In this document: positions 1 through 31,182 of the stretch, piece after piece
Position numbering within the stretch: the first letter of the stretch is position 1
Layout: every line of letters begins with the position of its first letter
Sequence record: MN850568.1
DNA length: 42,197 nt
Strand: one strand, 5' to 3'
DNA from: Escherichia phage altidsur
Notes under the pieces: generated by a model
What the model was told of the DNA's origin: nothing
Databases searched by the model: none
Seen by the model: only the letters and a program-made list of their open reading frames with translations
Translations under genes and position numbers: made by a program

Positions 1-296
1 ATACGTTCGTGCAGCACACCAACATGGTAGCCCGGCAGATGCCCGGCACTGCTGCTGCACTGGGGTGGAGTCGTGATAACGATGCCCAGTTCCAGTTCAT
101 GATGCAGATGGGTTATCAGGCAGGTTCAAGCTGGTATCGTACCGATGGTGCGTACAGCAAACTGGCTGATGCAATCCGTGTTGGCGACCAAGAGAAAGCT
201 GTGCAGGCTCTGGCTGCGACCCCGGCTTATAAGCTGTCGCAGGACGAGCGTAAGCAGTATTACGTCCAAACTCTACTCGCAGGTATGCAGGAATGA
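1..296 (+). CDS. Internal virion protein B, C-terminal end (partial at window start; probable continuation of the ORF that runs off the window 3' end)
   Basis: Open frame from position 3 to the stop at 294-296. The ORF leaving the window at 42197 joins it in frame (2401 + 296 nt = 899 codons). ATGA stop/start overlap with the next gene. Confidence 0.6.
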   Translation, partial: TFVQHTNMVARQMPGTAAALGWSRDNDAQFQFMMQMGYQAGSSWYRTDGAYSKLADAIRVGDQEKAVQALAATPAYKLSQDERKQYYVQTLLAGMQE

Positions 297-3200
297 TTAT
301 CACACAAGAATCGCTCGACAAGTTCATGGCTCCCAAGCAGGGGGCCAACGCTCCCTCGCTGGTTATTCCAGCTCCCGTAAAGACTGCTGACCTCAGCACT
401 CCACTGCAAGATGCCACTCGTCAGGGTGCCGTCGAGCAGTTCGACAAGATGCAGGAACTGGAAGCAACTCCGATGGCCACGGCGTTGAGTGCTTCTGTGA
501 AGAACTGGGACACCACCCAGCTCTTTGATGCCGCGTTCAACAAGCCCACCTTCCAAGCTGACCCGGACTTCAAGCCCAACGAGGCATTGCAGAACGTACA
601 GTTCCCGGTGGGTGCAGATGACCGGACGTTCCTGTTCAAATCCAAATCCATGGACGAGTTCAACTGGCGTACCCAGCAGCTCCAAGAGATGCGTGAGCGT
701 ACCCAGTTGGCTCACACTGCCCCGGTGATGAACGCGGTTCTGCAATTCGCTGACCCGCTGTATCTCGCCACCGACCTGCTCTCGATGGGAGCAGGCACTG
801 CCCTGAAATTAGGTCGCCTCGGAACCGCCGCTGTCGGTGCAGCTTCAACTGCTGCCACTATGGCAGCGGTGGGTAACGAAGCACGCCCAGTGTCTCAGAA
901 CGAGATTATCTTCGCGGCTGCCCTGCACGGGGCAGCCACCACCGCGTTCTATCGTCCCGCCGCCGCGCCAGCTCGTCGCCTTGATGAACTGTCGCCGGAG
1001 GAGTTCGCTGCTGAGATGCAGCGCCGTAACGGTATCGACCCCAACAACCCGCCGCAGTTCGACCCGAACAATGCTATGTCGCCGCTGGCGATGTCGCTCG
1101 GTGTTGGCCCACGCGGTGCCGCTGTCGTTGACGAGGTTCCTGAATCCATCCGGGCTACGGCTCAGCGTGGACTCGACCTCGCACGCCGTGGCGAGCAGAC
1201 CAACCCTAAGCGTCCGTTCCTTGAGTGGTCACTGTTCAAGTCTTTCAGCCAGCACTCTGATGAATCAAGTGCTCTGGCCGGGCGACTGCTGGACGACCCA
1301 CTGAATCCGAACATGACCTCCGCTGCGTCTATCCAGCGCGAGACTCAGGCTCGCTTTGGTGTGCTGCTGAACCAGTATGAGGATACACTGCGCAACGCCC
1401 TGAACGCTGATGGCTGGAGCAACATCCGGCGCTTCCGCGACCCGGTAGGCTATCGCCGGGCGCAGCAGGAGTTTGAAGCTGCTGTGCGTCTGGAGCTGGA
1501 TAAGCGTATGATTGACCCCAGTTTCAAAGGCGCTAACCCAAATGTGGCCAACGCTGCCGACCGACTGGGGGAATACTCCCGTGCCGTTGGCCGTGAGCTG
1601 GAGAACAAGGGTATGGTTGAACCGGGCTTCGTTGAGAAGAACCCGTACTACTACCCGCGCCGGATGAACGTGACCAAGATTGAGCAGGCTGAGCAGTTGC
1701 TCGGCAAGAAACCATTCATGAAGCAGATGACGACTGCTGTGCAGCGCGGTATCGGTACTGACCGTCCGACTGCCAACGTCATTGCCCATGCTATGGTTGA
1801 GCGTGCTCGTCGTAAGGGTTACGGTATCGACAACTCCGGGATGATTATCAACAAGGAGGGTCGTGATGAACTACTCGAAATCATCGCGAACACGAAAGGT
1901 ATGGACGAGGCTGCCAAGGCCCGTGCGTCAGCGCTCCTTCGTGAGTCTGGCTCGGACGCTGGTAGACCGTCAATGCTTAAGAGCCGTATCAACATCGACA
2001 TGATGCACACGCTTGGCCCTAACTTGCAGGTGCGTGACCTGTTCGATGACAGCATCACCAGTATGATGGACAGCTACAACCGACGCATTACTGGGCGACT
2101 GGCTCTGCACGAGGCTGGATTGGGTACTGACGCTGAACGAGCTGCTGCTCGCGAGGCTCTGGCCAAATCTATCCCGGACAGCACTGCACGCCGCAAGGCT
2201 CTCGACCAGTACGACAACATCATGGCCTACTACCAAGGTGCTCCTGTTGGTGAGGAGATGCCGGAGTTCATGCGTCAGTTGTCGGCGCTGACTCAGGCCA
2301 CTGGTCTGGCTGCATCTGGTCTGTGGCAGTTGGTGGAATACGGCACGATGATGCAACGTTTCGGGGCAGTCAATACGTTTCGCGCCATGATGCGTACAAT
2401 TCCCGAAGCACGCGCACTATTTAAGCAAATGAGGGTGTCTACTAAGGAAGGTCGTCAGTTGGCACTTGATGCCGAGGAAGCTCTGACTGCGGCGGTTGCG
2501 AGTGATATTCGTATGCGCCCAATCATGCAGCACTATGACGACATGTTCTCTGCGGATAAGTCTCCGTGGGTCATGCGTATGGAACACCTGCGCGATGCCA
2601 CGATGTTCATCAACATGCAGAAGTACATCCACTTCCACCAGACTCGAACCAACGCTGCGCTCGTAATGCAGACGCTGCGCAAGGCAGCCGAAGGTGATGC
2701 CAAGGCTATTGCAGCCATGAAAACCTACGGTGCCAATGACGCGCTGCTGGCTGACATTCGCAAGCAGGTTGGTACTCATGGCACCAAGCCTGACGCTTGG
2801 GATGAAGGGGTGTTCAATCGCTCCCGCATTGTCATGATGAACGCCATGGATGACGCTATTGTTCGTGCTCGCGTAGGTGAGCTGCCTGCTTTCGCTGAGT
2901 TCAGTACCCTCGGCAAGTTCCTGTTTACGTTCCGTCGATTCGTCGCGGCTACGCACAACAAGACGCTGGTTGGTACTTGGAATCGCGAGGGTGCGCGTGG
3001 TATGGCTACGCTAATGGCGTACCAGTACCCGCTGGCGATGATGGCCACCGCTGCCAACAACGTCATCTCCGGCAAGGCATTCTCTGACCCGGACACTATG
3101 GCCCCGAACAAACTGGCAGGTCAGGCACTGAACTATCTTGGTGCTATCGGCTTTGCCTCTGAGTTCACTGGTGTACTGACCGGGCAGCAGCGTAGCTTCG

Positions 3201-3403
3201 GTGCGCCGGGCCTGCTGTTCCTCGACCGCCTGTATGGTGTCGCCGGGGCCACCTCTGCTACGGCAGGGAGTCTGGCTACTGGTGACATCGACCAAGCCGG
3301 GCATGACGCTCGCAAGGCTGCCGGGAACATCATTCAGGCTCTCCCACTAATCTCCATTGTGCCGGGTGTCCGAGCACTCAACGAAGCAGTTAAGGGCGAA
3401 TAA
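293..3403 (+). CDS. Internal virion (core/ejection) protein C, 1036 aa
   Basis: Very long ORF between the lysozyme-domain internal virion protein and the tailspike, matching T7/phiKMV gene order for the large core protein; ATGA coupling upstream, TAATG coupling downstream. Confidence 0.65.
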   Translation: MIITQESLDKFMAPKQGANAPSLVIPAPVKTADLSTPLQDATRQGAVEQFDKMQELEATPMATALSASVKNWDTTQLFDAAFNKPTFQADPDFKPNEALQNVQFPVGADDRTFLFKSKSMDEFNWRTQQLQEMRERTQLAHTAPVMNAVLQFADPLYLATDLLSMGAGTALKLGRLGTAAVGAASTAATMAAVGNEARPVSQNEIIFAAALHGAATTAFYRPAAAPARRLDELSPEEFAAEMQRRNGIDPNNPPQFDPNNAMSPLAMSLGVGPRGAAVVDEVPESIRATAQRGLDLARRGEQTNPKRPFLEWSLFKSFSQHSDESSALAGRLLDDPLNPNMTSAASIQRETQARFGVLLNQYEDTLRNALNADGWSNIRRFRDPVGYRRAQQEFEAAVRLELDKRMIDPSFKGANPNVANAADRLGEYSRAVGRELENKGMVEPGFVEKNPYYYPRRMNVTKIEQAEQLLGKKPFMKQMTTAVQRGIGTDRPTANVIAHAMVERARRKGYGIDNSGMIINKEGRDELLEIIANTKGMDEAAKARASALLRESGSDAGRPSMLKSRINIDMMHTLGPNLQVRDLFDDSITSMMDSYNRRITGRLALHEAGLGTDAERAAAREALAKSIPDSTARRKALDQYDNIMAYYQGAPVGEEMPEFMRQLSALTQATGLAASGLWQLVEYGTMMQRFGAVNTFRAMMRTIPEARALFKQMRVSTKEGRQLALDAEEALTAAVASDIRMRPIMQHYDDMFSADKSPWVMRMEHLRDATMFINMQKYIHFHQTRTNAALVMQTLRKAAEGDAKAIAAMKTYGANDALLADIRKQVGTHGTKPDAWDEGVFNRSRIVMMNAMDDAIVRARVGELPAFAEFSTLGKFLFTFRRFVAATHNKTLVGTWNREGARGMATLMAYQYPLAMMATAANNVISGKAFSDPDTMAPNKLAGQALNYLGAIGFASEFTGVLTGQQRSFGAPGLLFLDRLYGVAGATSATAGSLATGDIDQAGHDARKAAGNIIQALPLISIVPGVRALNEAVKGE

Positions 3404-5775
3404 TGGCGAACAGCTATAACACCTACGTGGCGAACGGGACGCAGACTGCGTTCCTCGTCACCTTTGAGCAGCGCGTATTTACGCAGATTCAGGTGTACCT
3501 CAACTCCACACTCGTGACGGAAGGGTACACCTACAACTCTGTGACCAAACAGATTGTCTTCTCGACAGCACCTGTCGCCGGGACAATCGTACGCCTGCAA
3601 CGCTACACCTCTGAGACGCTGCTTAACAAGTTTGGTCAGGACGCTGCCTTCACGGGCAGCAACCTCGACGAGAACTTCGAGCAGATTCTGTTTAAGGCTG
3701 AGGAAACTCAGGAGGCATGGCTCGCGCCGCTCGACCGAGCAGTCCGTGTCCCGAACTCCGAAGTCTCCATCAACGCATTACCGAACGTCGCTGGCCGCCG
3801 TAACAAGGCATTGGGCTTTGACAACGCTGGTCAGCCGTTCATGATTCCTCTGGTTGATATTCCTGACTCAGCTCTGGCCATTGCGCTGGCGATGAATGAC
3901 GGCGGTAAGTGGATTGGCACCCTTGGCGGTGGTACGTTCCTCGACCGTCAGGACACTGTGTGTCTGTCAGAGTTCACCAACAACACTGGCTATGCGTCCA
4001 TCGCTGCCGCTGTGCAGGCATGTTTCGACTATGCCAAGGCAAACGGTAAGGTTGTGGATGCACGCGGCTGGGAAGGCACTGTGGACTCCACGGTGACAAT
4101 GGATGGTATTGAGGTCGTCGGCGGTACGTGGCACGGTAAGGCAGATATTCGACTGATTGACTCAACGTTCCGCAACTTCAAGGCATCCACTGTGCGTGTG
4201 GCGTACTGGGGTGGCAAGGTTCGCATTGCTGACTATGAGTTCACCAGTGCGCCGAGCAACTCCAAAGTTACGTCAATCCTGTTCCAAGGCAACATCGCCG
4301 GGGGCAGCTACGTAATCGAGAACGGTATCCACCGTAACGGCAAGTTCGGTATTCTGCAACAGGGTACTGGTGAGGCTATCACCAATGGCATTATCCGCAA
4401 CGTCGCTATGATGGACATGATGGGTGATGGCATTGAGATGAACGTAATCAACAAGCACTATGACGGTGGCCTGCTGATTGAGAACATCTACCTTGAGAAT
4501 ATCGACGGCACCAACGCACCTATTCCACTGTCCAACTGGGGCATCGGTATCGGTATCGCTGGTCAAGGCCCGTTCGGTTGGGACGCTGCTGAGACTCAGT
4601 ACGCGAAGAACGTGACCGTGCGTAACGTCCATGCTCCGCGCGGTGTACGTCAGGTTGTCCACTTCGAAGTTACCCGCGACAGCGTGTGCGAGAACGTGGT
4701 CTGTAACCCTGACCTGTCCGTGTCCACTGGTACTGGCCTGTCTGCTGCTGGCGTAATCACGTACGGCTGCAAACGCATGACCATTGATGGCGTGGTTGGT
4801 GAGCCTATCAACACAGGTGCAACCTCCCCTAACGATATTCGTCTCGTTATGCTGGAGTGGGGTGCTAACCAAGCAGGTGCTGGCGGTACGCCGGGTGCTG
4901 CGTGTCCATCTTTTGACATGACCGTGCGCAACGTGCAGACCCGCACCGGGCGCTTCTATGCAGGTGTCGGCTCCGACGACGATAACACCAACACGTACCA
5001 CCTTGAAAACATTCACTGTTACAAGATGACGCTGTTCGGTGTGGCTACTCTGCTGAACATGACCAACGTTACTGGTGTCGTATTCGACGCAGTTGGCGAT
5101 GACTCCAGCGGCGGTACTTCGTCCAACGGTGTGTACCCGCGTAAGAAGACGTGCCTTAACATGGTGAACGTGAACTTCTACGGGCCGGGTATGACCGAGG
5201 GTGCGCTGTACAGTAAGGCTCGGTACTCGGACATCAGTACGCTGAACTCCAACGTCCGTGCAATCCCGTACACCAACATCCAAGGTAACGTTGGCGCTAT
5301 CCTGTCTCCAGTGAACCGCATCCTGACGCTGCCAAACAACTTGGCAACGCTGACAGGTGCTGAGTTCCCGACTGGTAAAGAGTTCCCGGAAGGTACTGTC
5401 CTGCTGAAAACTGATGGTTCTGGTGGTAACTTCATCGTCACCCAGTTTGGTGCCTACATCCCTAATGATGGCAACAACTTCAAGGTGCGTGCTGCTGCCG
5501 CTGGCCAGACGTATCTGGAGCAGAACCTGACTCCGGCTGGTACTCAGGCATCCACCTCGTGGCTGTACCACAAACCAATCTCTGCTGGCACCCGGTTGAA
5601 CATCCCCGGCGCTGGGCCGAGTGGCGGTACACTGACTGTGACGGTGGTGCGTGCTCCATATCAGGTGGACAACAACATCGGGAACCCGGTGCGCATCGAC
5701 ATCACACCGCCGCTGGTGACTGCTATCCCTGCCGGGACGCAGCTCGCCGCGACTTATCCGGTGGCTTACATCTAA
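3403..5775 (+). CDS. Tail fiber/tailspike protein with T7 gp17-like N-terminal anchor and a beta-helix (depolymerase-like) body
   Basis: The first ~150 aa resemble the conserved N-terminal adaptor of T7-type tail fibers by eye; the rest is Gly/Asn/Thr/Val-rich with repeated G-x-hydrophobic strands typical of right-handed beta-helix spikes; position after the internal virion proteins. Confidence 0.75.
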   Translation: MANSYNTYVANGTQTAFLVTFEQRVFTQIQVYLNSTLVTEGYTYNSVTKQIVFSTAPVAGTIVRLQRYTSETLLNKFGQDAAFTGSNLDENFEQILFKAEETQEAWLAPLDRAVRVPNSEVSINALPNVAGRRNKALGFDNAGQPFMIPLVDIPDSALAIALAMNDGGKWIGTLGGGTFLDRQDTVCLSEFTNNTGYASIAAAVQACFDYAKANGKVVDARGWEGTVDSTVTMDGIEVVGGTWHGKADIRLIDSTFRNFKASTVRVAYWGGKVRIADYEFTSAPSNSKVTSILFQGNIAGGSYVIENGIHRNGKFGILQQGTGEAITNGIIRNVAMMDMMGDGIEMNVINKHYDGGLLIENIYLENIDGTNAPIPLSNWGIGIGIAGQGPFGWDAAETQYAKNVTVRNVHAPRGVRQVVHFEVTRDSVCENVVCNPDLSVSTGTGLSAAGVITYGCKRMTIDGVVGEPINTGATSPNDIRLVMLEWGANQAGAGGTPGAACPSFDMTVRNVQTRTGRFYAGVGSDDDNTNTYHLENIHCYKMTLFGVATLLNMTNVTGVVFDAVGDDSSGGTSSNGVYPRKKTCLNMVNVNFYGPGMTEGALYSKARYSDISTLNSNVRAIPYTNIQGNVGAILSPVNRILTLPNNLATLTGAEFPTGKEFPEGTVLLKTDGSGGNFIVTQFGAYIPNDGNNFKVRAAAAGQTYLEQNLTPAGTQASTSWLYHKPISAGTRLNIPGAGPSGGTLTVTVVRAPYQVDNNIGNPVRIDITPPLVTAIPAGTQLAATYPVAYI

Positions 5776-11687: not shown

Positions 11688-12080
11688 ATGTACCGTATCT
11701 ATGCAAGCGCATATCGTCAGGGCAACGCTGAATGTGTTAATCTGGCGCTTCATTGCAAGGCACTGCGAACGGTGCAGGATATGTTCGGAGTGGTTCCGGT
11801 CACACTGACAGGCAAGTTCGACAATGCGTACGAGTTAAGCATGGTCTTTCCTGTCGATGGAATCTACGAAATCAGGCAGGCTGTTAAGCTGTTCTGTAAA
11901 GCATTCGAACAGGACTGCATCATGGTAGTGACCAAAGATGATGATGCAATCTTCATGGATTCACCATATCCGGGCAAGCCTGCTGGCAAGTTCGTCAGCA
12001 AGACTGAGGCCGAAATGGAAGCCGGGCAGCACACCGCTTGGACTTACGATGGTGAACAATTTTGGGTAGTGGAGGCGTAA
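11688..12080 (+). CDS. Early hypothetical protein, 130 aa
   Basis: First ORF after the ~450-nt leader; GGAGA RBS 8 nt upstream of the ATG. Confidence 0.55.
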   Translation: MYRIYASAYRQGNAECVNLALHCKALRTVQDMFGVVPVTLTGKFDNAYELSMVFPVDGIYEIRQAVKLFCKAFEQDCIMVVTKDDDAIFMDSPYPGKPAGKFVSKTEAEMEAGQHTAWTYDGEQFWVVEA

Positions 12081-24566: not shown

Positions 24567-25559
24567 GTGCCACGGGGGAAACCAATGAGCAGATTGAAAC
24601 GTCTACTCCACAACGCCGAGGAACTTGATGACCAGTTTGATGGTTACGTGTCTGGTCGTATCCTGCTGTGCGATGCTGACTCCACAGTCTACGTCGCGGC
24701 GGCAACCACGAAGAACATCGAGACAGCGAAGACGCGCTTCTGCTCAGGGGTGCTGACTGCTAAGTTCTTGGCCGCCGCCCAGTCTGTGCGTATCGAGCTG
24801 ACCGCTGCCGAGTGCAGCAAGGCTGGTCGGTACAAGCTGCGCGGTGTCAAGCCGTATCAAGGCAACCGCGACAAGGACAGAAAGCCCGGTCTGGTTGAGC
24901 CGTTGCGTAAGGCGATTGGCCGGAACATGTTCAACGTTCCTGATGGCGAGGACTGGTACGTCCACCTGAACTTTGAGTTCGAGGCAGACGACACCTTAAT
25001 CATGGACGCGTGGACGATTGGGCTGGAGGATGCTGTCATCTACAGTGCGGATAAAGACCTGCGCTGCTGGCCGGGCAGGTTCCTCGACCCATACGATAAC
25101 AAGGTGCTGGAGCCATGCAAAGGTATCGGCACATTGTGGTGGCATGAAACCAAGAGTGACAAGTCGCTCATTGGCCATGGCCCGATATTCTTTTGGGCGC
25201 AGATGCTGATGGGTGACACGGCAGACAACATCGCTGGTGTCAAGAAACTTGGCAAGCAGGCAGCTTACAATATGCTGAACGAGTATCAGGAAACTGATGA
25301 CGAGTCGGCAGTGGCTGAGCTGGTGCTGAGAGAATACATGGTGCGTGACCAGAACCCATGGCCGGAGGCTGTTGCTCTGTGGCTGTACCGCACGCCGACC
25401 TACTCATTCGCAGCTCACTTGAATACGCTGACCTTGAGCAAGGAGCTGCGTATCTGGTTGCATAAGAAATTGAGTGAGGAATGGTATGCGGAAAGTGACT
25501 GGCGCGACCTTGTTGCAGATGCGGAAGAATGCGATGGGCTGTCCTTGCCCACTCTGTAA
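24567..25559 (+). CDS. Putative 5'-3' exonuclease, 330 aa
   Basis: Position between DNA polymerase and endonuclease VII as in T7/phiKMV-type replication modules; size close to T7 gp6; Asp-rich N-terminal region. Call is synteny-based. Confidence 0.5.
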   Translation: MPRGKPMSRLKRLLHNAEELDDQFDGYVSGRILLCDADSTVYVAAATTKNIETAKTRFCSGVLTAKFLAAAQSVRIELTAAECSKAGRYKLRGVKPYQGNRDKDRKPGLVEPLRKAIGRNMFNVPDGEDWYVHLNFEFEADDTLIMDAWTIGLEDAVIYSADKDLRCWPGRFLDPYDNKVLEPCKGIGTLWWHETKSDKSLIGHGPIFFWAQMLMGDTADNIAGVKKLGKQAAYNMLNEYQETDDESAVAELVLREYMVRDQNPWPEAVALWLYRTPTYSFAAHLNTLTLSKELRIWLHKKLSEEWYAESDWRDLVADAEECDGLSLPTL

Positions 25560-25866
25560 CGAGCCGATGGTAGACCTCAAGCTCATGGTTGTTGACCACG
25601 ACCATGTGAGTGGGGAGATTCGCGGGGTCATCTGTCGCTGGTGTAATGCTCAGCTCGGTAAGGTAGAGAACTCTGCCAACCGAGCGAAGCGCCAGCGCAC
25701 TGTGGATGATTGGCTGGACAGCGCTATCGAGTGGCGACGTAAGCAACACACTGGTCTGATGTACCCAACGCACAAGACCGAGGCAGAGAAGAAGGCGGCA
25801 GTAGCCGACAGACGTAAGAAGGCAGCAGCCGCGAAAGCGCGAGCCTTATTGACTAAGGGGAAATGA
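25486..25866 (+). CDS. Endonuclease VII-type (His-Me finger/HNH-like) resolvase
   Basis: CPCPLCNEP...VVDHDHVSGEIRGVICRWCNAQLG matches the T4 endonuclease VII zinc/His-Me motif; start uncertain (25474-25534) and overlaps the exonuclease 3' end out of frame. Confidence 0.7.
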   Translation: MRKVTGATLLQMRKNAMGCPCPLCNEPMVDLKLMVVDHDHVSGEIRGVICRWCNAQLGKVENSANRAKRQRTVDDWLDSAIEWRRKQHTGLMYPTHKTEAEKKAAVADRRKKAAAAKARALLTKGK

Positions 25867-26990
25867 TGACCAAGTTAACGAATCACCAACTCAAAGAAGA
25901 CATTGCCGAAGGGCTTGGCACCAAAGCCATTGCGGATAAGCACGACATGACCGAGAGTGCCATCCGATACCGGAAGCGCCAGCTTGCCAAGAGCGGCTGG
26001 AGTCCTGAGCACGACATGACGAAGGAAGTACCGGAGCCGTATGCAGTCAAGGGTACGTCCACGCTGTACGATAAGGACGGCAACGTTGTCATGCAGTGGG
26101 TGAAGACTGCGCTCGACCGTGAGCAAGAGCTGGCTATGCTACAGGCAGCAGTTGATGCAATCAGTGAGAGCATCGTGCCGGAGCCGCCGCGCTTGTATGC
26201 AGGTCGCACAGCGCCAGCCGATTTGCTTAACCTGTTCGTCCTGACTGACTACCACCTCGGTATGCTGGCGTGGGCTGAGGAGACTGGCGACGACTGGGAT
26301 ATGAAGATTGCGGAAGACCTGCTGGTCAAGTGGTTCGCCGCCGCCATCGACAGTGCGCCGCCAGCTCAGGTTGCTATCTTCGGACAGCTCGGTGACTTCC
26401 TGCACTGGGATGGGCTGGATGCAGTAACGCCGTCGAGTGGTCATGTGCTGGATGCTGACACGCGATTCCAGAAGTTGGTGCGTGTGGCCATTCGAGCGCA
26501 GCGCCGCATCATTGGTATGCTGCTGGAGAAGTTCCCGCAGGTTCACGTAGTGTGTGCCGAGGGCAACCATGACATGGCCAGCTCTATCTGGATGCGTGAG
26601 CTGCTGCATGTACTGTACGCCGACGAGCCGCGTGTTACTGTTGACCGCAGCCCTGACCCGTACTACTGCTATGAGCATGGTGAGACGGCACTGTTCTTCC
26701 ACCATGGCCACAAGCGTAAGGCAGAACAACTGGAGACTGTACTGGTCGCCAAGTTCCGCGAAGTGTATGGCCGAACCAAACATGCTTATGCACACGTTGG
26801 CCACCTGCATCACAAGAAGGTACTGGAGTCTGGTGTTATGGTTGTCGAGCAGCACCGTACGCTGGCGGCGAAGGATGCCTACGCTTCTCGTGGTGGTTGG
26901 CTGAGCGAGCGCAGCGCGAGCGTGATTACGTACCATACCCGGTACGGCGAGGTTGCACGATTCACGATTAGCCCGGAGATGTTAGAGTGA
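25863..26990 (+). CDS. Calcineurin-like metallophosphoesterase with N-terminal HTH-like region, 375 aa
   Basis: Metallophosphatase motifs in order: LGDFLHWDG, AEGNHD, FFHHGH, VGHLHH; N-terminal ~40 aa helix-turn-helix-like. Confidence 0.65.
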   Translation: MMTKLTNHQLKEDIAEGLGTKAIADKHDMTESAIRYRKRQLAKSGWSPEHDMTKEVPEPYAVKGTSTLYDKDGNVVMQWVKTALDREQELAMLQAAVDAISESIVPEPPRLYAGRTAPADLLNLFVLTDYHLGMLAWAEETGDDWDMKIAEDLLVKWFAAAIDSAPPAQVAIFGQLGDFLHWDGLDAVTPSSGHVLDADTRFQKLVRVAIRAQRRIIGMLLEKFPQVHVVCAEGNHDMASSIWMRELLHVLYADEPRVTVDRSPDPYYCYEHGETALFFHHGHKRKAEQLETVLVAKFREVYGRTKHAYAHVGHLHHKKVLESGVMVVEQHRTLAAKDAYASRGGWLSERSASVITYHTRYGEVARFTISPEMLE

Positions 26991-27211
26991 CACGAACCCT
27001 GTACCAAGAAGATGTGGTACAGCTTAAAGAAGATGGCCTCTCGATTGAGTGGGAGGCCAACACTCAGGTTGAGCTGTACAAAGATGGCACCGTCTGCATT
27101 TCTCAGGACGGTGAGGAAGTCTGGTTGCCTTGGGCGTACGTCCGAGACGTTATCTTTGCTCTTGAGGAAGCACACGATGCACATGAAAGACACCGTAGTA
27201 GTAGACCTTGA
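26987..27211 (+). CDS. Small hypothetical protein, 74 aa (GTG start)
   Basis: GTG overlapping the upstream TGA; overlaps the next gene by ~35 nt; weak. Confidence 0.35.
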   Translation: MTRTLYQEDVVQLKEDGLSIEWEANTQVELYKDGTVCISQDGEEVWLPWAYVRDVIFALEEAHDAHERHRSSRP

Positions 27212-27680
27212 TGGTACGCTGGCCGATGGCCGCTGGCGTTTGCACCTGCTGCCTCCACCGGAGCGTCGGCACCTTGACGAAGCGTGGGCCGAGTTCAACT
27301 TGGCTGGCGCTGACGACCCTGCGTTTCAGGATACGATTGACATTGTGAACGCTCTGGCCCTCACGTATCGCATTGTCATCCTGACTGGACGCGGGGCCGT
27401 GGCCCGTGAAGTAACAGAGCAGTGGCTCGACGAAGCTGGCGTTGTTTACGACAAGCTAATCATGAGAGAGATTGGTGACTGCCGTAAGGACACAGAGATG
27501 AAGCTATCCGCTCTGGAGGATATTGGTATCGAGAACATCGTGTGTGCTTTCGATGACCTGCCGCACATCGTGGACTTCATGCGAAGCCTCGGCATCACAG
27601 TGTATGAAGTGACCCGGTACGAGGACAACCATGAGTACGTCCACGCCAATGCCAAATACGATGGAGACAAAGATGAGTAA
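27177..27680 (+). CDS. HAD-superfamily phosphatase (polynucleotide 3'-phosphatase-like), ~167 aa
   Basis: HAD motif I VVVDLDGTLAD near the N-terminus and a late acidic motif (FDDLPH); internal ATG of track ORF 27012..27680. Confidence 0.6.
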   Translation: MHMKDTVVVDLDGTLADGRWRLHLLPPPERRHLDEAWAEFNLAGADDPAFQDTIDIVNALALTYRIVILTGRGAVAREVTEQWLDEAGVVYDKLIMREIGDCRKDTEMKLSALEDIGIENIVCAFDDLPHIVDFMRSLGITVYEVTRYEDNHEYVHANAKYDGDKDE

Positions 27681-28257
27681 ACGTGGTGACAAGTTCTGTC
27701 TGGATATTAACCGCGACTACCAAAGCCCACGGCTCAACGCTATGCGGGACAACGGCATCATCCTGACGTACGATGAACCCTATGATGTACCTAATGACAG
27801 CAGGGATTATTACACCTACGTTTGGGACGGCAGGACGGAACATCTGGTACTGGAGCCTTATGAGGTACAGCCAGTCCAGACTGCGTTCATTGAGAACGAC
27901 CCATATGACCCGGCCTCTGATGTTGAGGTGGCCGTGGCCATTGGTCAGGGTGTTGGTGGGCCGGGCGGTATGAAGTTCGACGGCGGCAAACCGCGCATGG
28001 CCCTGCTGTTCGACGGTTGCCCGAATGCACTGGAGGCTGTAGCCAGCGTGCTAACCTTCGGTGCTCAGAAGTACGCAGCTCACTCGTGGCAGACCGTACC
28101 GGAAGGTGAGGAACGCTACAAGTCAGCGCTGCTTCGTCACCTGACCGCAGTGGGTAAGGGTGAGGAGACTGACCCGGAATCCAATCTGCACCATCTGGCG
28201 CACGCTGCTTGCAATGCGCTGTTCATTCTGGAACTTGCTTTAAGGAAAACGAAATGA
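27673..28257 (+). CDS. Conserved phage protein resembling dATP/dGTP pyrophosphohydrolase-type nucleotide hydrolase domains, ~194 aa
   Basis: Segment KFDGGKPRMALL...FGAQKYAAHSWQ...RYKSALLRHL...ESNLHHLAHAACNALFILE; family assignment from memory only. ATG overlaps the upstream stop (ATGAGTAA). Confidence 0.5.
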   Translation: MSKRGDKFCLDINRDYQSPRLNAMRDNGIILTYDEPYDVPNDSRDYYTYVWDGRTEHLVLEPYEVQPVQTAFIENDPYDPASDVEVAVAIGQGVGGPGGMKFDGGKPRMALLFDGCPNALEAVASVLTFGAQKYAAHSWQTVPEGEERYKSALLRHLTAVGKGEETDPESNLHHLAHAACNALFILELALRKTK

Positions 28258-28433
28258 GTGCTTTACTTTATGTGATTGCTTTGTTCTGGTTCGTGTACTT
28301 TACACTGGCCACCCTCAGCGCGTGCAAGTCTTATAACTTGACGCACTACCCGACACGGGCTGGCTCTGCTGGTTTCGTTGTGTGGGTACTGTTGGCTGTA
28401 CTGCCAACTTGGTTCATCTGCTATCTGGCGTAG
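28254..28433 (+). CDS. Small two-TM membrane protein (holin-like topology), 59 aa
   Basis: ATGA-coupled internal ATG of track ORF 28209..28433; hydrophobic helices LLYVIALFWFVYFTLATL and FVVWVLLAVLPTWFICYLA. Confidence 0.5.
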   Translation: MSALLYVIALFWFVYFTLATLSACKSYNLTHYPTRAGSAGFVVWVLLAVLPTWFICYLA

Positions 28434-28441
28434 GGGATTGT

Positions 28442-28747
28442 ATGAGTCGTTATCAGAGAGCTGTCGATGACACAGCGGTAGACAAGAATGTGTGCGGTGC
28501 GTGCCATGGGAGTGGCACCTACCGGGGCATGTTGATTGGTGGGCAGGTAGTCCTGATGGATTGCGAAGCCTGCGGCGGTACGGGTACGAATAACAGCACG
28601 CTTCAACACGAGGTGCTGGCAGACTTAGGGCAGCGCAACCAAGCGCAGCCCGGTTATGATAAGCCTACCTATGGCGTTGGTATTGTCGAAGAATTTCAAG
28701 ACGATGCGGCTGAGGTTGAGCGGTTAGCTGGACAAATTAAGGAGTAG
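28442..28747 (+). CDS. Zinc-finger protein (DnaJ-like CxxCxGxG repeats), 101 aa
   Basis: CGACHGSGTY and CEACGGTGT motifs; internal ATG of track ORF 28382..28747 with GGGG RBS. Confidence 0.5.
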   Translation: MSRYQRAVDDTAVDKNVCGACHGSGTYRGMLIGGQVVLMDCEACGGTGTNNSTLQHEVLADLGQRNQAQPGYDKPTYGVGIVEEFQDDAAEVERLAGQIKE

Positions 28748-28749
28748 TT

Positions 28750-31182
28750 GTGGACTTACTTGCTGAGCAGATTCGACTTGAAGAAGAAGCACGAGCCAGA
28801 CACCGCGAGGGCTGGCTGGACAATATCAAAGAAGCCATGGCTAGTGGCCGGGCCGGGTCGGTGCCGTTGCTCCAGCGTATGATGGTAGAGGCGTATCCTC
28901 TTGTCGAAGCTGCGATGCAAGAAACCCTGAACGAAACGACCCGTGGGTACGGTGCGCAGTACCGGACGTACATGCGTGAGATTGGCACCAAGGCGTGTGC
29001 CTCTCTTGCACTGAGCATGGCGGTGTCCGGTGCTGCGTCGGAGCAGGCGGTGCTGAGTCTGCTTAAGAGTATGGGTAAAGCGCTGATGGCTGAGGTGGTG
29101 TATCTCCGGGCGAAGCAGACCGGGCCACAGCAGGCAGCGTACATGGAGCGCGTGAAGCAGGACGTTAAGAAGTCCCGGTCGAAGTCAGCCAACCACGTCT
29201 ACAACAAAGCGCGTGCGTCGGCGGCGAACGTTGGGGTCGAGATTGATGTGCTGCCGCAGCGTGCTCTGATTACCATTGGCAAGCTGATGATGAAATGCGT
29301 GGAGCCAACTGGGTTGGTGGCTACGATTCGCGTCGGCGGCAACCAACGTCAGCGCGGTACGGCACACTTCGCACTGCATGAGGATGTGCTGGCTACGATG
29401 AACGACTGGCTGGACATGCCGCGTGCTGATGGCATGTGCTGCCCACCGTTGATTATCCCACCGAAGCAGATTGCACCGAACGGTCGCAGCGGTATGTGGC
29501 ACTCGGATGGGCAGGCGGCGATGTACCGGGTAATGAGTCGCATGAACCACAAAGGGTATCGTGCATTGAACGTTGACCCGACCCCTGTTATAGAGCCGTG
29601 TATGATGCTCAGCAGCGTTCCGTACCGAATTAACCCAATGGTACTGGAGTTCCTGAGAACGAACCGTACAGGCGTTATGGGGCTGCCTGTGCCGCCTCGT
29701 GAGCCTAAGCTCCCATTCACCATCCCGGCTGGTGTCAGCTTCGCGCAGTACATCAGCAAGTTCCCACCAGAGATGCAGCAGCAGATGGATGCCGAGGCTC
29801 ATGAGTACAAGGTTAAGACTCGCTTGTATTACAATGAGTTGCGTAAGTTCACGTCGCAGATGCTGGCGCTGAATGGTGCAGTCAAAGAGGCAGAGCGCTA
29901 TGCGCATTATGACCGGGTATACCTCCCGACCTACGCTGATACACGGGGCCGAATTTATTATTCTTCGACCCTTAACCCTCAGTCCATCGACGCAGTGCGA
30001 GCGCTGCTCGAACTTGCTGAACCAGTGGCTCTCGGAAGTGAGGGGTTATTCTGGCTCAAGGTACATGTTGCGAATTGCTTCGGCTACGACGCGACAGACT
30101 TCGAAGACCGGGCGGCGTGGACGGACAAGACACTCCCCCGACTACGTGAGGCGTGCCGTCTTCCAGAGGCATTTGATTCGTTCTGGTCAGAGGCCGATAG
30201 CCCTATCAGCGCGTGGGCTGCATCTGTTGAACTCATTCGCGCTATCGACTCAGGAAATCCTGCGGCTTATCCCTGCCGAGTGGTTACACAATGGGACGCT
30301 ACCTGTTCAGGATTACAGCACCTCAGTGCGATGTTACGAGATGAGGTTGGAGGTGCTGCTGTCAATCTTATCGACAGCGTGGGAAGAAAAGCAGACATAT
30401 ATCTCAAGACGGCAGCAGCGGCGATGCAGGCTCTTGAAGAAAGTGAGGCAGCAGCGCCGACGCAAATGGGTACGTGGCTTGTTAGCATCGGCATCGTTCG
30501 GGCTATGGCCAAGAAGCCAGTGATGACCTACGTGTACGGGGCAACCCGGCATGGTATGGTTGATTACTACTGCCTGTATCTGCGTGAGAACCGGGTCAAG
30601 CTGCCGGACGGCAAGAGCCTGCTGGAGTGTGCGCAGTTCATCGCAGAGTTCATGTGGAACGCTATCCCTCGCGTTGTGCCGAAGGCGGCTGAGCTGATGG
30701 CATGGTTGCAGGCTATCGCAGTTGAGGCGGCAGCCAACGGCGAGTACGTGGAAATCATCGCACCGTCAGGGTTGCGGGTGGTTAACCTGTACCAAGCCAG
30801 TAAGGAGACGATGCTCAACAACATCAACCTCATGGGTATCCACAGCATTAAGCTGCGTGAGTATCTGGACAAGCCGGACAGCCGGAAGTGTGCTGCTGCG
30901 ATTGCTCCGAATTTCGTACACGCTATGGATGCCAGCCACATGATGAAGGTGCTGTGGGAGATGTGGAACAACGGGGTGTACATGGTATCCATCCATGACT
31001 CGTTCGGTGTTGCGGCGGCACATGCTGGTCTGCTGCATAAGGTCATTCGTGAAAAGTTCGTACAGATGTATGAGCAACATGACCCAATTCAACAGCTTGC
31101 GGTAAGATACAATGCTGTTGCACCAGAACGGGGTAATCTGGACATCCAGCTTGTGAAACAATCAAGCAAGTTTTTCTGCTAA
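28750..31182 (+). CDS. DNA-directed RNA polymerase, T7-like single-subunit, 810 aa
   Basis: Motif WDATCSGLQHLSAMLRD (compare T7 DGSCSGIQHFSAMLRD) and IHDSFG catalytic motif; GTG start; located directly upstream of the structural module. Confidence 0.9.
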   Translation: MDLLAEQIRLEEEARARHREGWLDNIKEAMASGRAGSVPLLQRMMVEAYPLVEAAMQETLNETTRGYGAQYRTYMREIGTKACASLALSMAVSGAASEQAVLSLLKSMGKALMAEVVYLRAKQTGPQQAAYMERVKQDVKKSRSKSANHVYNKARASAANVGVEIDVLPQRALITIGKLMMKCVEPTGLVATIRVGGNQRQRGTAHFALHEDVLATMNDWLDMPRADGMCCPPLIIPPKQIAPNGRSGMWHSDGQAAMYRVMSRMNHKGYRALNVDPTPVIEPCMMLSSVPYRINPMVLEFLRTNRTGVMGLPVPPREPKLPFTIPAGVSFAQYISKFPPEMQQQMDAEAHEYKVKTRLYYNELRKFTSQMLALNGAVKEAERYAHYDRVYLPTYADTRGRIYYSSTLNPQSIDAVRALLELAEPVALGSEGLFWLKVHVANCFGYDATDFEDRAAWTDKTLPRLREACRLPEAFDSFWSEADSPISAWAASVELIRAIDSGNPAAYPCRVVTQWDATCSGLQHLSAMLRDEVGGAAVNLIDSVGRKADIYLKTAAAAMQALEESEAAAPTQMGTWLVSIGIVRAMAKKPVMTYVYGATRHGMVDYYCLYLRENRVKLPDGKSLLECAQFIAEFMWNAIPRVVPKAAELMAWLQAIAVEAAANGEYVEIIAPSGLRVVNLYQASKETMLNNINLMGIHSIKLREYLDKPDSRKCAAAIAPNFVHAMDASHMMKVLWEMWNNGVYMVSIHDSFGVAAAHAGLLHKVIREKFVQMYEQHDPIQQLAVRYNAVAPERGNLDIQLVKQSSKFFC

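Follow-up and report, generated by a model that had tools for sequence, protein, structure and literature searches.

The window analysed here is the whole 42,197-nucleotide sequence of Escherichia phage altidsur (MN850568.1), a Bonnellvirus (T7-like podovirus) with 98.4% identity to Escherichia phage aldrigsur over the region discussed. Between the genes for endonuclease VII (25474..25866, + strand; PF02945, E=3.6e-13; phrog_423, E=1e-30; the start annotated in aldrigsur is equivalent to position 25534) and the single-subunit phage RNA polymerase (28750..31182, +; an 810-aa ORF, given as RNA polymerase in the aldrigsur and LF82-23 annotations) lies a tightly packed cluster of genes, all on the + strand, most of which overlap or abut their neighbours and each of which is preceded by a Shine-Dalgarno-like sequence. 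Internal promoter or terminator signals in the cluster do not rise above chance, no Rfam or tRNA matches fall in its region, and no homologues were found for the long opposite-strand ORFs across it. Its neighbours are exonuclease, endonuclease VII and DNA polymerase genes, and the cluster is the tail end of the Bonnellvirus DNA-metabolism (middle) gene block. Gene positions, strand and flanking genes are as the initial annotation placed them, and profile searches of the cluster proteins uphold its domain calls.

The first gene (25866..26990, +; alternative ATG at 25863) encodes a 374-aa HTH-metallophosphoesterase (MPE) that matches PHROG 704 at E=1e-146 and Pfam Metallophos at E=0.019 only, under the curated cut-off. 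In a 19-sequence alignment, motifs I-V of the catalytic domain (about aa 118-374; 26217..26987, +) are invariant (D128, H130, D177, N234, H235, H280, H315, H316), as are the further columns T188, H193, D196, D198, R200, K203, E328 and D337; judged by this alignment, all catalytic residues of the altidsur protein are present. The domain contains a conserved insert specific to this MPE family, TPxSGHxLDxDxRxxK, and has the EQHRTLAAKDAYASRGGW motif at its C-terminal end. Ahead of it stands a three-helix HTH domain (about aa 1-45; 25866..26000, +; model helices 6-14, 19-26 and 30-42), and homologues match the Pfam families HTH_28, HTH_23, HTH_24, GerE, HTH_8 and HTH_50, which bears out the initial description of a calcineurin-type enzyme behind an HTH-like N-terminus. 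By fold, the Mre11, SbcD and PolD-DP1 exonucleases give the longest aligned stretches; no SbcC/Rad50 partner was found for the altidsur MPE. The protein belongs to a large uncharacterised phage MPE family.

The second enzyme is a standalone PNKP-type HAD phosphatase of 167 aa (27177..27680, +), whose HAD motif had also been recognized initially and which scores above the cut-off for HAD_PNKP (PF25109, E=1.2e-14; phrog_415, E=4e-55), its DxDGT, T, K and DD motifs being readable in the sequence. Its PDB matches are Pnkp1 (4xrp, E=9e-8) and T4 PNK (1ltq, 5uj0). The protein has no P-loop kinase domain, and its relatives, at 150-264 aa, are HAD-only in every case; the 'polynucleotide kinase' labels that such HADs carry in GenBank are misnomers.

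The third enzyme gene (27673..28257, +) encodes a 194-aa protein with an N-terminal SH3-like beta domain (about 27673-27939, +) and a C-terminal dNTP pyrophosphohydrolase-type domain (about 27967-28248, +), an assignment that the initial annotation had left unverified and that a match to PF18909 (dGTP_diPhyd_N, DUF5664; E=4e-33) now secures. The domain is 43% identical to gp51 of Arthrobacter phage Wayne over 77 aa and keeps the family invariants K133, Y134, R155, H156, G163, E164, D167 and H174. The Wayne gp51-type homologue hydrolyses dATP, dUTP and dGTP (PMC12884076). The altidsur phage has no PurZ, DatZ or DpoZ and its DNA is ordinary, which rules out removal of dATP as the purpose of the enzyme here; since the homologue acts on dATP, dUTP and dGTP, the likeliest role in such a phage seems to be a dUTPase-like or house-cleaning one. 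Three genes of the cluster are predicted to encode enzymes that process the phosphates of nucleotides or nucleic acids.

The remaining genes are small. A gene for a conserved 74-aa protein (26987..27211, +), missing from the initial list, overlaps both the stop codon of the MPE gene and the beginning of the HAD gene; it differs from its LF82-23 counterpart by 18 synonymous codons and one nonsynonymous codon, evolves under purifying selection and also occurs in Lidtsur, J8-65 and LIMEzero. Its product has no match in PHROG and a single marginal one in Pfam, to IN_DBD_C (21 residues, 21.7 bits against a cut-off of 21). The 59-aa two-TM peptide (28254..28433, +; hydropathy segments 1-25 and 36-59) is absent from LF82-23, its phmmer matches being limited to three near-identical sources. 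Directly upstream of the RNA polymerase gene, a 101-aa zinc-finger protein (28442..28747, +) carries two CxxCxGxG motifs and matches phrog_6060 (E=1e-13) and, below the cut-off, DnaJ_CXXCXGXG (E=7.7e-4); the gene is kept in this position in Bonnellvirus, J8-65, Lidtsur and LIMEzero. The initial annotation had correctly described the two-TM and DnaJ-like proteins and had taken four consecutive genes together, which goes too far, since recurrence side by side holds for the three enzymes; the genes for the zinc-finger, two-TM and 74-aa proteins occur in this lineage alone and are passengers that do not accompany the enzyme cassette elsewhere.

In several phage lineages that are unrelated to one another, MPE, HAD and DUF5664 genes recur directly beside each other on the same strand. 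We examined flanks of up to 8 kb at 93 MPE loci, made up of 80 IMG/VR loci (the best 80 matches, not a random draw), annotated phage records and the window, which form 28 clusters at 70% identity. All 18 HAD genes in these flanks lie on the same strand as the MPE and less than 400 nt from it (six independent clusters), and all 18 DUF5664 genes lie less than 1.5 kb away (nine clusters), six of them abutting or close to an MPE without a HAD. At least one partner is found in 14 of the 28 clusters; 64 of the 93 loci have none inside 1.5 kb, and the MPE can therefore act alone. The slot between endonuclease VII and RNA polymerase carries such pairs in the podoviruses Bonnellvirus, Reminis, LIMEzero, L015 and L056, while Kagunavirus-like siphoviruses place an MPE-HAD-dNMP kinase set in an opposite-strand island within the tail genes. 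LIMElight and Drulisvirus have the HAD-DUF5664 pair with the MPE absent, and in Aeromonas phage Bolek an unrelated MPE occupies the same slot beside a HAD and a dNMP kinase. A T4 gp1-type dNMP kinase sits at the DUF5664 position in some other lineages, its profile matching the T4 dNMP kinase 1dek (E=5e-8) and not PNK; a T7 gp1.7-like nucleotide kinase adjoins the MPE in MPK9, and roseophage EE36P1 has the order dCMP deaminase, DUF5664, thymidylate synthase, MPE. Many recurring pairs share overlapping stop and start codons. The grouping is no accident of the altidsur genome. All the families were known before and the cluster genes already annotated in relatives; modest new leads come from the recurring linkage and from the MPE family, which is large and uncharacterised.

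What could be the role of such a grouping? We tentatively favour, at somewhat less than an even chance, a mobile accessory cassette of MPE, HAD and DUF5664 that helps to break down DNA, salvage deoxynucleotides and sanitise their pool. We infer the following scheme for what the MPE and HAD act on, how the enzymes are coupled and what they do physiologically. The HTH would bind DNA, and the binuclear metal centre of the MPE would cut host DNA, damaged DNA or oligonucleotides at their phosphodiester bonds; the HAD would take 3'-phosphates off the resulting ends, oligonucleotides or 3'-nucleotides, and the dephosphorylated products could pass to further degradation, to extension or to the 5'-nucleotide pool. 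The DUF5664 enzyme would convert unwanted dNTPs to dNMP and PPi, and the gp1-type dNMP kinase found in its place in other phages would return dNMPs towards dNTPs. Nucleotide-pool manipulation is the best-supported part, in view of the biochemistry of the DUF5664 homologue (PMC12884076) and the dNMP kinase, nucleotide kinase, dCMP deaminase and thymidylate synthase neighbours. The initial annotation's contrast with core replication is reasonable, the genes being accessory and variably present among related phages.

Several observations weigh against the salvage and sanitation cassette. The altidsur MPE is not detectably related to characterised phage MPE nucleases, most MPE loci stand without a nearby partner, and an enzyme degrading dATP and dGTP is counter-intuitive in a phage with canonical DNA. 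T7-like phages recycle host DNA with an endonuclease and an exonuclease alone, and altidsur already encodes both.

The same genes might instead form an end-healing module, in which the MPE would trim and the HAD 3'-phosphatase clean phage DNA or RNA ends broken by host nucleases, ready for extension or ligation, with DUF5664 functionally unrelated. The best solved HAD relatives, Pnkp1 of the Pnkp1-Rnl-Hen1 RNA repair system and T4 Pnkp, agree with such a module, as do the HAD_PNKP score, the exonuclease-like MPE fold, an HTH suggestive of nucleic-acid binding and the adjoining exonuclease, endonuclease VII and DNA polymerase genes; standalone DNA 3'-phosphatases exist, such as yeast Tpp1, and Ralstonia phage Reminis has a gene for an ATP-dependent DNA ligase three positions downstream of its HAD gene, following DUF5664 and a small ORF. 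We nevertheless consider end healing unlikely: a 5'-kinase domain is absent and the close HAD relatives all lack one, a ligase annotation is absent from a near-identical genome, the MPE has no SbcC/Rad50 partner, and mononucleotides are indicated by the repeated linkage with DUF5664, nucleotide kinase, dCMP deaminase and thymidylate synthase. Repair of cleaved tRNA, raised as an example by the initial annotation, would require a polynucleotide kinase and a ligase, both of which are lacking, and is therefore unlikely, the kinase that accompanies MPE and HAD elsewhere being a gp1-type dNMP kinase.

That the genes have no joint function, the slot being merely permissive and collecting independent accessory genes that each act alone, would fit its differing content among relatives (with or without an MPE, with either DUF5664 or a kinase, and with additional small genes), the lineage-specific small genes and the many MPE genes without a HAD or DUF5664 neighbour. 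It is rendered improbable by the recurrence of MPE-HAD, MPE-DUF5664, HAD-DUF5664 and HAD-dNMP kinase pairs in entirely different contexts, including a siphovirus tail-gene island, an N4-like nucleotide-metabolism cluster and environmental contigs, by the overlapping codons of many pairs, and by the non-homologous MPE that fills the same position beside the HAD in Bolek.

Counter-defence, with at least one enzyme destroying nucleotide immune signals, triggers or toxic nucleotides (cyclic oligonucleotides, m6-dAMP, viperin ddhNTPs), strikes us as quite unlikely. In its favour, the genes are mobile accessories whose presence varies, and the Guernseyvirinae cassette shares a moron-like island with a superinfection-immunity gene. 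Record lengths and organism names, without a formal tally, suggest that DUF5664 is concentrated in podovirus-like phages with short records (about 40-46 kb) and their own RNA polymerase, and the chain-terminating ddhNTPs made by prokaryotic viperins target polymerases of this phage type. Defence systems such as PUA-Cal-HAD use the same enzyme classes on nucleotides, and a phage role in countering nucleotide-based defences has been predicted for phosphodiesterases, calcineurin-like ones included (PMC7824862). However, the hydrolysis of signalling nucleotides that the initial annotation proposed has no direct support: the window has no PADLOC matches, no PADLOC defence model is related in sequence, and no relation of the cassette enzymes to known anti-signal enzymes was found. 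The latter differ in fold, Acb1 being 2H and Apyc1 a metallo-beta-lactamase; a small-molecule role would leave the HTH of the MPE unexplained, and the recurring partners are ordinary enzymes of nucleotide metabolism.

For the salvage and sanitation cassette, known systems offer partial parallels. Wayne gp51, a standalone DUF5664, and the DUF5664-DUF550 'MazZ' of Acinetobacter phage SH-Ab 15497 are dATP/dGTP(/dUTP) pyrophosphohydrolases of Z-genome phages (PMC12884076). The altidsur protein shares with them PF18909 membership and a variable N-terminal extension before a C-terminal DUF5664, but it is partnered by an MPE and a HAD, not by PurZ or Dut-NDT. T5 needs its calcineurin-like pre-early protein A1 to degrade host DNA, and A1 is encoded alongside the dNMP phosphatase dmp (PMC7824862), while gp48 of mycobacteriophage A10ZJ24 is an MPE DNase in vitro and in vivo (PMC12287305). 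The altidsur MPE resembles A1 and gp48/Bxb1 gp47 in superfamily, catalytic motifs and early/middle-region expression, and the T5 operon, which encodes a small two-TM protein besides its MPE and nucleotide phosphatase, is comparable to the altidsur cluster. There is no family-level relationship, however: against A1 and Bxb1 gp47 (a stand-in for the gp48 family), hhalign probabilities are 0.8% and 9% and profile scores at most 5 bits, and the altidsur MPE differs in its HTH and distinctive insert. T5 dmp matches no Pfam family at E<=0.01; we take it to be an HD-type 5'-deoxynucleotidase rather than a HAD. In PUA-Calcineurin-CE-HAD defence, HAD and Calcineurin-CE act on deoxynucleotides as a two-step cascade, and MazG can replace the calcineurin (bioRxiv 10.64898/2026.01.15.699771). 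Both systems link calcineurin-like MPE, HAD phosphatase and MazG-like NTP pyrophosphatase classes, although the altidsur cassette is phage-encoded, has no PUA sensor domain and contains a PNKP-type HAD; the likeness would be an analogy of parts, and we do not claim homology. The altidsur HAD is HAD_PNKP with the same motifs as T4 PseT, the Pnkp1 phosphatase domains and yeast Tpp1, yet it has only the phosphatase half of PseT and no RNA or DNA ligase partner in the genome. T4 turns host DNA into nucleotides through the Mre11-Rad50-like exonuclease gp46/47, the 3'-phosphatase PseT and the dNMP kinase gp1, and relatives of the cassette link genes for an MPE, a HAD_PNKP and a gp1-type dNMP kinase. 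In T4 the genes are dispersed and the MPE is paired with a Rad50-like ATPase, whereas altidsur has no ATPase partner and carries DUF5664 instead of the kinase.

The stretch between the endonuclease VII and RNA polymerase genes of Escherichia phage altidsur (25863-28747) is 98.4% identical over its 2,885 bp to that of Escherichia phage aldrigsur (MN850592), whose 42-kb genome is co-linear with the whole window. It is 84-89% identical along most of its length to other phages of Bonnellvirus, a genus placed in Autographiviridae or, in the newer taxonomy, in Autoscriptoviridae/Stentvirinae. The gene order runs from primase, helicase, DNA polymerase, a phrog_862 protein, 5'-3' exonuclease and endonuclease VII through the studied region to the RNA polymerase, which in Bonnellvirus phages lies downstream of the DNA-metabolism genes. 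All genes of the region are on the plus strand, each has a Shine-Dalgarno-like sequence at its start, and most junctions overlap or abut: the stop of the metallophosphoesterase (MPE) gene (25866-26990) overlaps the start of a 74-aa gene (26987-27211), which overlaps the HAD phosphatase gene (27177-27680) by 35 nt; this overlaps the DUF5664 gene (27673-28257) by 8 nt, which in turn overlaps the gene for a two-TM peptide (28254-28433) by 4 nt, while gaps of 8 and 2 nt precede the zinc-finger gene (28442-28747) and the RNA polymerase gene, respectively. Promoter and terminator scans of the region returned signals at chance level, giving no indication of a transcription unit within it; Rfam and tRNA scans of it produced zero matches, no homologues of its long minus-strand ORFs were found, and NCBIfam and PADLOC scans were uninformative. 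Elsewhere in the window, co-linearity with annotated aldrigsur gene 44 identifies a putative anti-restriction SAMase at 11688-12080. The analysis bore out the initial annotation in its four domain calls (a calcineurin-type MPE behind an HTH-like N-terminus, a HAD phosphatase, a dNTP pyrophosphohydrolase-like segment and a DnaJ-like zinc finger) and in its two-TM peptide; the genes that it listed stand, and the conserved 74-aa gene has to be added to them.

The 374-aa MPE carries the PF00149 motifs D128-x-H130, G176-D177, G233-N234-H235-D236, H280 and G312-H313-x-H315-H316 and the beta-alpha-beta-alpha-beta sandwich of the MPE fold. In an alignment of 19 diverse homologues, with identity down to 28%, the liganding residues D128, H130, D177, N234, H235, H280, H315 and H316 are invariant and G176, D236 and H313 are kept in at least 90%, and conservation extends to a family-specific insert (T188, H193, D196, D198, R200, K203) and a C-terminal EQHRTLAAKDAYASRGGW element. 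The protein matches phrog_704 at E=1e-146; against PF00149 it scores 15.8 bits, below the gathering cut-off of 21.5, and 7 of the 19 homologues match that model at E<=0.05. Its first 45 residues form a three-helix bundle, and its homologues match HTH_28, HTH_23, HTH_24, GerE, HTH_8, HTH_50 and sigma-70 region 4. This HTH-MPE family is uniform in length and has more than 6,000 close relatives (4,918 clusters at 50% identity in a representative-library search), being present in 2,046 of 50,697 phage records, or about 4% of sequenced phages. Podovirus and siphovirus members share 50-60% identity, a very strong conservation, and the family extends over Guernseyvirinae, Dhillonvirus, Drexlerviridae, Jedunavirus, N4-like roseophages, Vibrio and Campylobacter phages and a lambdoid Pseudomonas phage. 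Some 100 nt around motif I (window ~26245-26344) are 84-91% identical in DNA to the MPE genes of Kagunavirus and Jerseyvirus siphoviruses, the rest of the gene being too diverged for megablast; the patch reflects either extreme constraint or recombination.

No experimental work on the HTH-MPE family was found in the literature, and a PDB sequence search with the MPE gave no meaningful match. Neither the Rad50/SbcC ATPase partner nor the nuclease capping domain of Mre11/SbcD was found for it. Kinship to T5 A1 (hhalign probability 9%) and to Bxb1 gp47, compared as representative of the A10ZJ24 gp48 family (0.8%), was rejected, a 135-sequence HMM scoring at most 5 bits against either; the same two methods rejected kinship to the MPE of Aeromonas phage Bolek.

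The HAD protein scores 55 bits against PF25109 (HAD_PNKP; cut-off 27.6), and its motifs I-IV can be read directly as VVVDLDGT, ILTGR, RKD and FDD (DxDGT, T, K and DD), aligning to the phosphatase domains of T4 PNK (T4 Pnkp) and Pnkp1. Judged from sequence, it belongs to a type whose members take 3'-phosphates off nucleic acids and 3'-nucleotides. All of its 167 aa are accounted for by HAD, with no N-terminal P-loop 5'-kinase domain, and the 120 relatives listed, of 149-264 aa, contain HAD Pfam domains only. 'Polynucleotide kinase' is hence a misnomer for the family. GenBank widely applies that name, or 'kinase-phosphatase', to HAD-only HAD_PNKP proteins of about 150-264 aa that have no P-loop.

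The DUF5664 protein matches PF18909 (dGTP_diPhyd_N) over its C-terminal 95 residues at E=4e-33 (113.8 bits, cut-off 27). The domain retains the invariant residues of DUF5664 and is 43% identical over 77 residues to gp51 of Arthrobacter phage Wayne (E=4e-11, hhalign probability 97.6%); a PDB sequence search with the protein gave no meaningful match. The standalone Wayne protein hydrolyses dATP, dUTP and dGTP to dNMPs, and the DUF5664-DUF550 fusion of the Acinetobacter Z-phage SH-Ab 15497 hydrolyses dATP and dGTP; conversion of dNTPs to dNMPs and PPi is established for these two proteins only (PMC12884076). A role in Z-genome (2-aminoadenine) synthesis, a pathway marked by PurZ together with DatZ, MazZ or DpoZ, does not apply here, since PurZ is absent: the 54 annotated aldrigsur genes include no PurZ/PurA-like gene, and every window ORF of at least 300 aa is accounted for. 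Among many phages of 42-46 kb the catalytic domains share 70-93% identity, while their N-terminal extensions are unrelated, being an SH3-like beta domain in the window (27673-27939), Cys-rich in LIMElight ORF35 and missing in Drulisvirus, a pattern suggestive of shuffled domains or of a targeting module that varies. PHROG families phrog_5033 and phrog_2252 name DUF5664 proteins 'endolysin; inhibits RNA polymerase', and in GenBank many Vibrio and Pseudomonas phages have their DUF5664 genes under the product name 'endolysin'; it looks like a propagating mis-annotation.

How often do these enzymes travel together? Linkage was assessed in the 80 IMG/VR loci that match the MPE best, together with annotated phage records, by searching ORFs with iterated profiles. 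Within flanking sequence of at most 8 kb, HAD genes occur at 18 loci from 6 MPE clusters (70% identity), always on the same strand and less than 400 nt from the MPE gene (18/18). DUF5664 genes likewise occur at 18 loci, from 9 clusters, all 18 within 1.5 kb of the MPE gene, and at 6 loci the DUF5664 gene directly adjoins the MPE gene or is near it while HAD is missing. In Kagunavirus-like siphoviruses and two podovirus contigs the MPE-HAD pair is followed by a P-loop kinase; altogether, half of the MPE clusters (14/28) have at least one of the three partners. Fusions of the Rosetta-stone kind involving HAD, DUF5664 or MPE are absent among the relatives listed.

The associations span several contexts. 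One is the endonuclease VII-RNA polymerase slot of podoviruses. In the tail-gene block of Guernseyvirinae the MPE gene and a superinfection-immunity gene (PF14373) sit together in an island on the opposite strand, as in Salmonella phage SETP13 (5360-7189), and in Escherichia phage EcoPhCCP1 (5386-7966) HAD and a dNMP kinase of the gp1 type join the MPE. A third, the nucleotide-metabolism cluster of roseophage EE36P1, holds MPE and DUF5664; in the nin region of a lambdoid phage the MPE adjoins a T7 gp1.7-like nucleotide kinase; and LIMElight and Drulisvirus have a HAD-DUF5664 pair without MPE. The EE36P1 cluster (1130-4101) reads dCMP deaminase, DUF5664, thymidylate synthase and MPE, with DUF5664 where the dUTPase of a dTMP-synthesis cluster would be expected, a position that suggests a dUTPase-like role. 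Aeromonas phage Bolek (1821-4192) has endonuclease VII, a non-homologous MPE of 338 aa, a small ORF, HAD, dNMP kinase and RNA polymerase in succession, its MPE looking like a non-orthologous replacement in the same slot.

The most economical reading, which we hold tentatively and at somewhat less than an even chance, is that MPE, HAD and DUF5664 form an accessory cassette helping to turn DNA into usable, clean precursors. It draws on the neighbours, consistently deoxynucleotide-metabolism enzymes, on the 3'-phosphatase type of the HAD protein and on the DNA-binding-type domain of the MPE; the substrates of MPE and HAD are inferred. The MPE would cleave DNA or oligonucleotides, HAD would then strip 3'-phosphates, and DUF5664 would hydrolyse unwanted dNTPs; in other phages a dNMP kinase would return dNMPs towards dNTPs. 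T4 gp46/47, PseT and gp1 provide a precedent set for the breakdown of DNA to nucleotides. The calcineurin-like T5 A1 is needed for host DNA degradation and is encoded in one pre-early operon with the dmp nucleotidase (PMC7824862), and further precedents are a mycobacteriophage MPE DNase (PMC12287305) and the PUA-Cal-HAD system, with its HAD and calcineurin-like enzyme working one after the other.

An alternative that we consider unlikely is that the region is a permissive slot holding unrelated genes. This would account for the lineage-specific small genes: the zinc-finger, two-TM and 74-aa genes differ in distribution from the three linked enzymes. It leaves unexplained, however, why the same enzyme pairs recur in unrelated contexts. 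The 74-aa gene differs from its counterpart in the related phage LF82-23 by 18 synonymous and 1 nonsynonymous codons, which indicates strong purifying selection and hence a real gene; its product matches no known family besides a marginal 21-residue Pfam hit, and it is lineage-specific, so that the idea of a conserved small partner downstream of the MPE across lineages was rejected. The 101-aa zinc-finger protein has two CxxCxGxG repeats (CGACHGSG, CEACGGTG) and falls outside the DnaJ-type family PF00684 (20.1 bits, cut-off 32.7; two repeats instead of the four that make up two zinc centres; no J domain). It resembles just a single DnaJ zinc centre. Its gene lies directly before the RNA polymerase gene in Bonnellvirus, J8-65, Lidtsur and LIMEzero, and its PHROG name is 'anti-termination protein Q-like'; it is possibly an RNA polymerase-associated factor.

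Equally doubtful is an end-healing or repair module, for which the closest solved relatives of HAD and the nuclease-like fold matches speak, while polynucleotide kinase and ligase are absent and the partner kinase elsewhere is a dNMP kinase. The 189-aa 'dNMP kinase' beside MPE-HAD in Kagunavirus-like phages could have favoured end-healing as a split-off PNK kinase; its profile does not match PNK but T4 dNMP kinase (1dek, E=5e-8), which points the other way. Together with the lack of any annotated ligase or PNK in the 98%-identical genome, this match tells against the repair of cleaved tRNA that the initial annotation offered as an example, a pathway that calls for a kinase and an RNA ligase (Rnl1/Rnl2 or RtcB) next to the phosphatase. 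Counter-defence through destruction of immune nucleotides is less probable still: it fits the accessory, mobile character of the genes and has an analogy in defence enzymes, but direct support is absent. Its stricter form, in which the trio is a counter-defence device rather than a salvage pathway and detoxifies or erases nucleotide-derived immune molecules, we rate slightly lower again. The trio would then, for example, hydrolyse the ddhNTPs made by prokaryotic viperins, chain terminators that poison phage RNA polymerases (the RNA polymerase gene lies directly downstream of the cassette), or destroy dNMP-type alarm signals such as m6-dAMP freed during host-DNA degradation. In that case HTH-MPE would be an anti-immunity enzyme family that has gone unrecognised in about 2,000 sequenced phages. 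A PADLOC 2023 scan, which may predate PUA-Cal-HAD, gave a single chance-level match among six proteins, to the zinc finger.

The finding is largely ordinary in that the families are known and near-identical phages in GenBank already have these genes annotated; the genus, genes and family assignments are already public and the DUF5664 biochemistry is published. What is new is the verification of the domain calls, the recurrent linked set of three enzymes, with a dNMP kinase in the DUF5664 position in some lineages, and the recognition of HTH-MPE as a very large and conserved, uncharacterised family. Tight recurrent linkage turns the precursor-supply reading into a testable pathway hypothesis, in which small virulent phages handle DNA breakdown products and police the dNTP pool. 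DUF5664, studied so far only in Z-genome phages, turns out to be widespread among phages whose DNA is ordinary and may there substitute for a dUTPase, and the propagating mis-annotations of DUF5664 as 'endolysin' and of HAD-only proteins as 'polynucleotide kinase' are exposed.

Among known systems, the PseT type of T4 combines an N-terminal 5'-kinase with a 3'-phosphatase, whereas the window HAD has the phosphatase half only. The T5 pre-early operon (124-4134) encodes the DNA-binding A2, a two-TM membrane protein, A1, two small ORFs and the dmp nucleotidase; it is alike in composition to the window block, each having a DNA-binding domain, an MPE, a nucleotide phosphatase and a two-TM peptide, with no detectable homology between them. 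In PUA-Cal-HAD the dNTPs are processed in sequence by HAD and calcineurin-like enzymes, and the calcineurin can be exchanged for a MazG-like enzyme (bioRxiv 10.64898/2026.01.15.699771). That system, PUA-Calcineurin-CE-HAD, fuses a PUA-like sensor to Calcineurin-CE and has HAD as a partner, whereas the window proteins contain no PUA domain.
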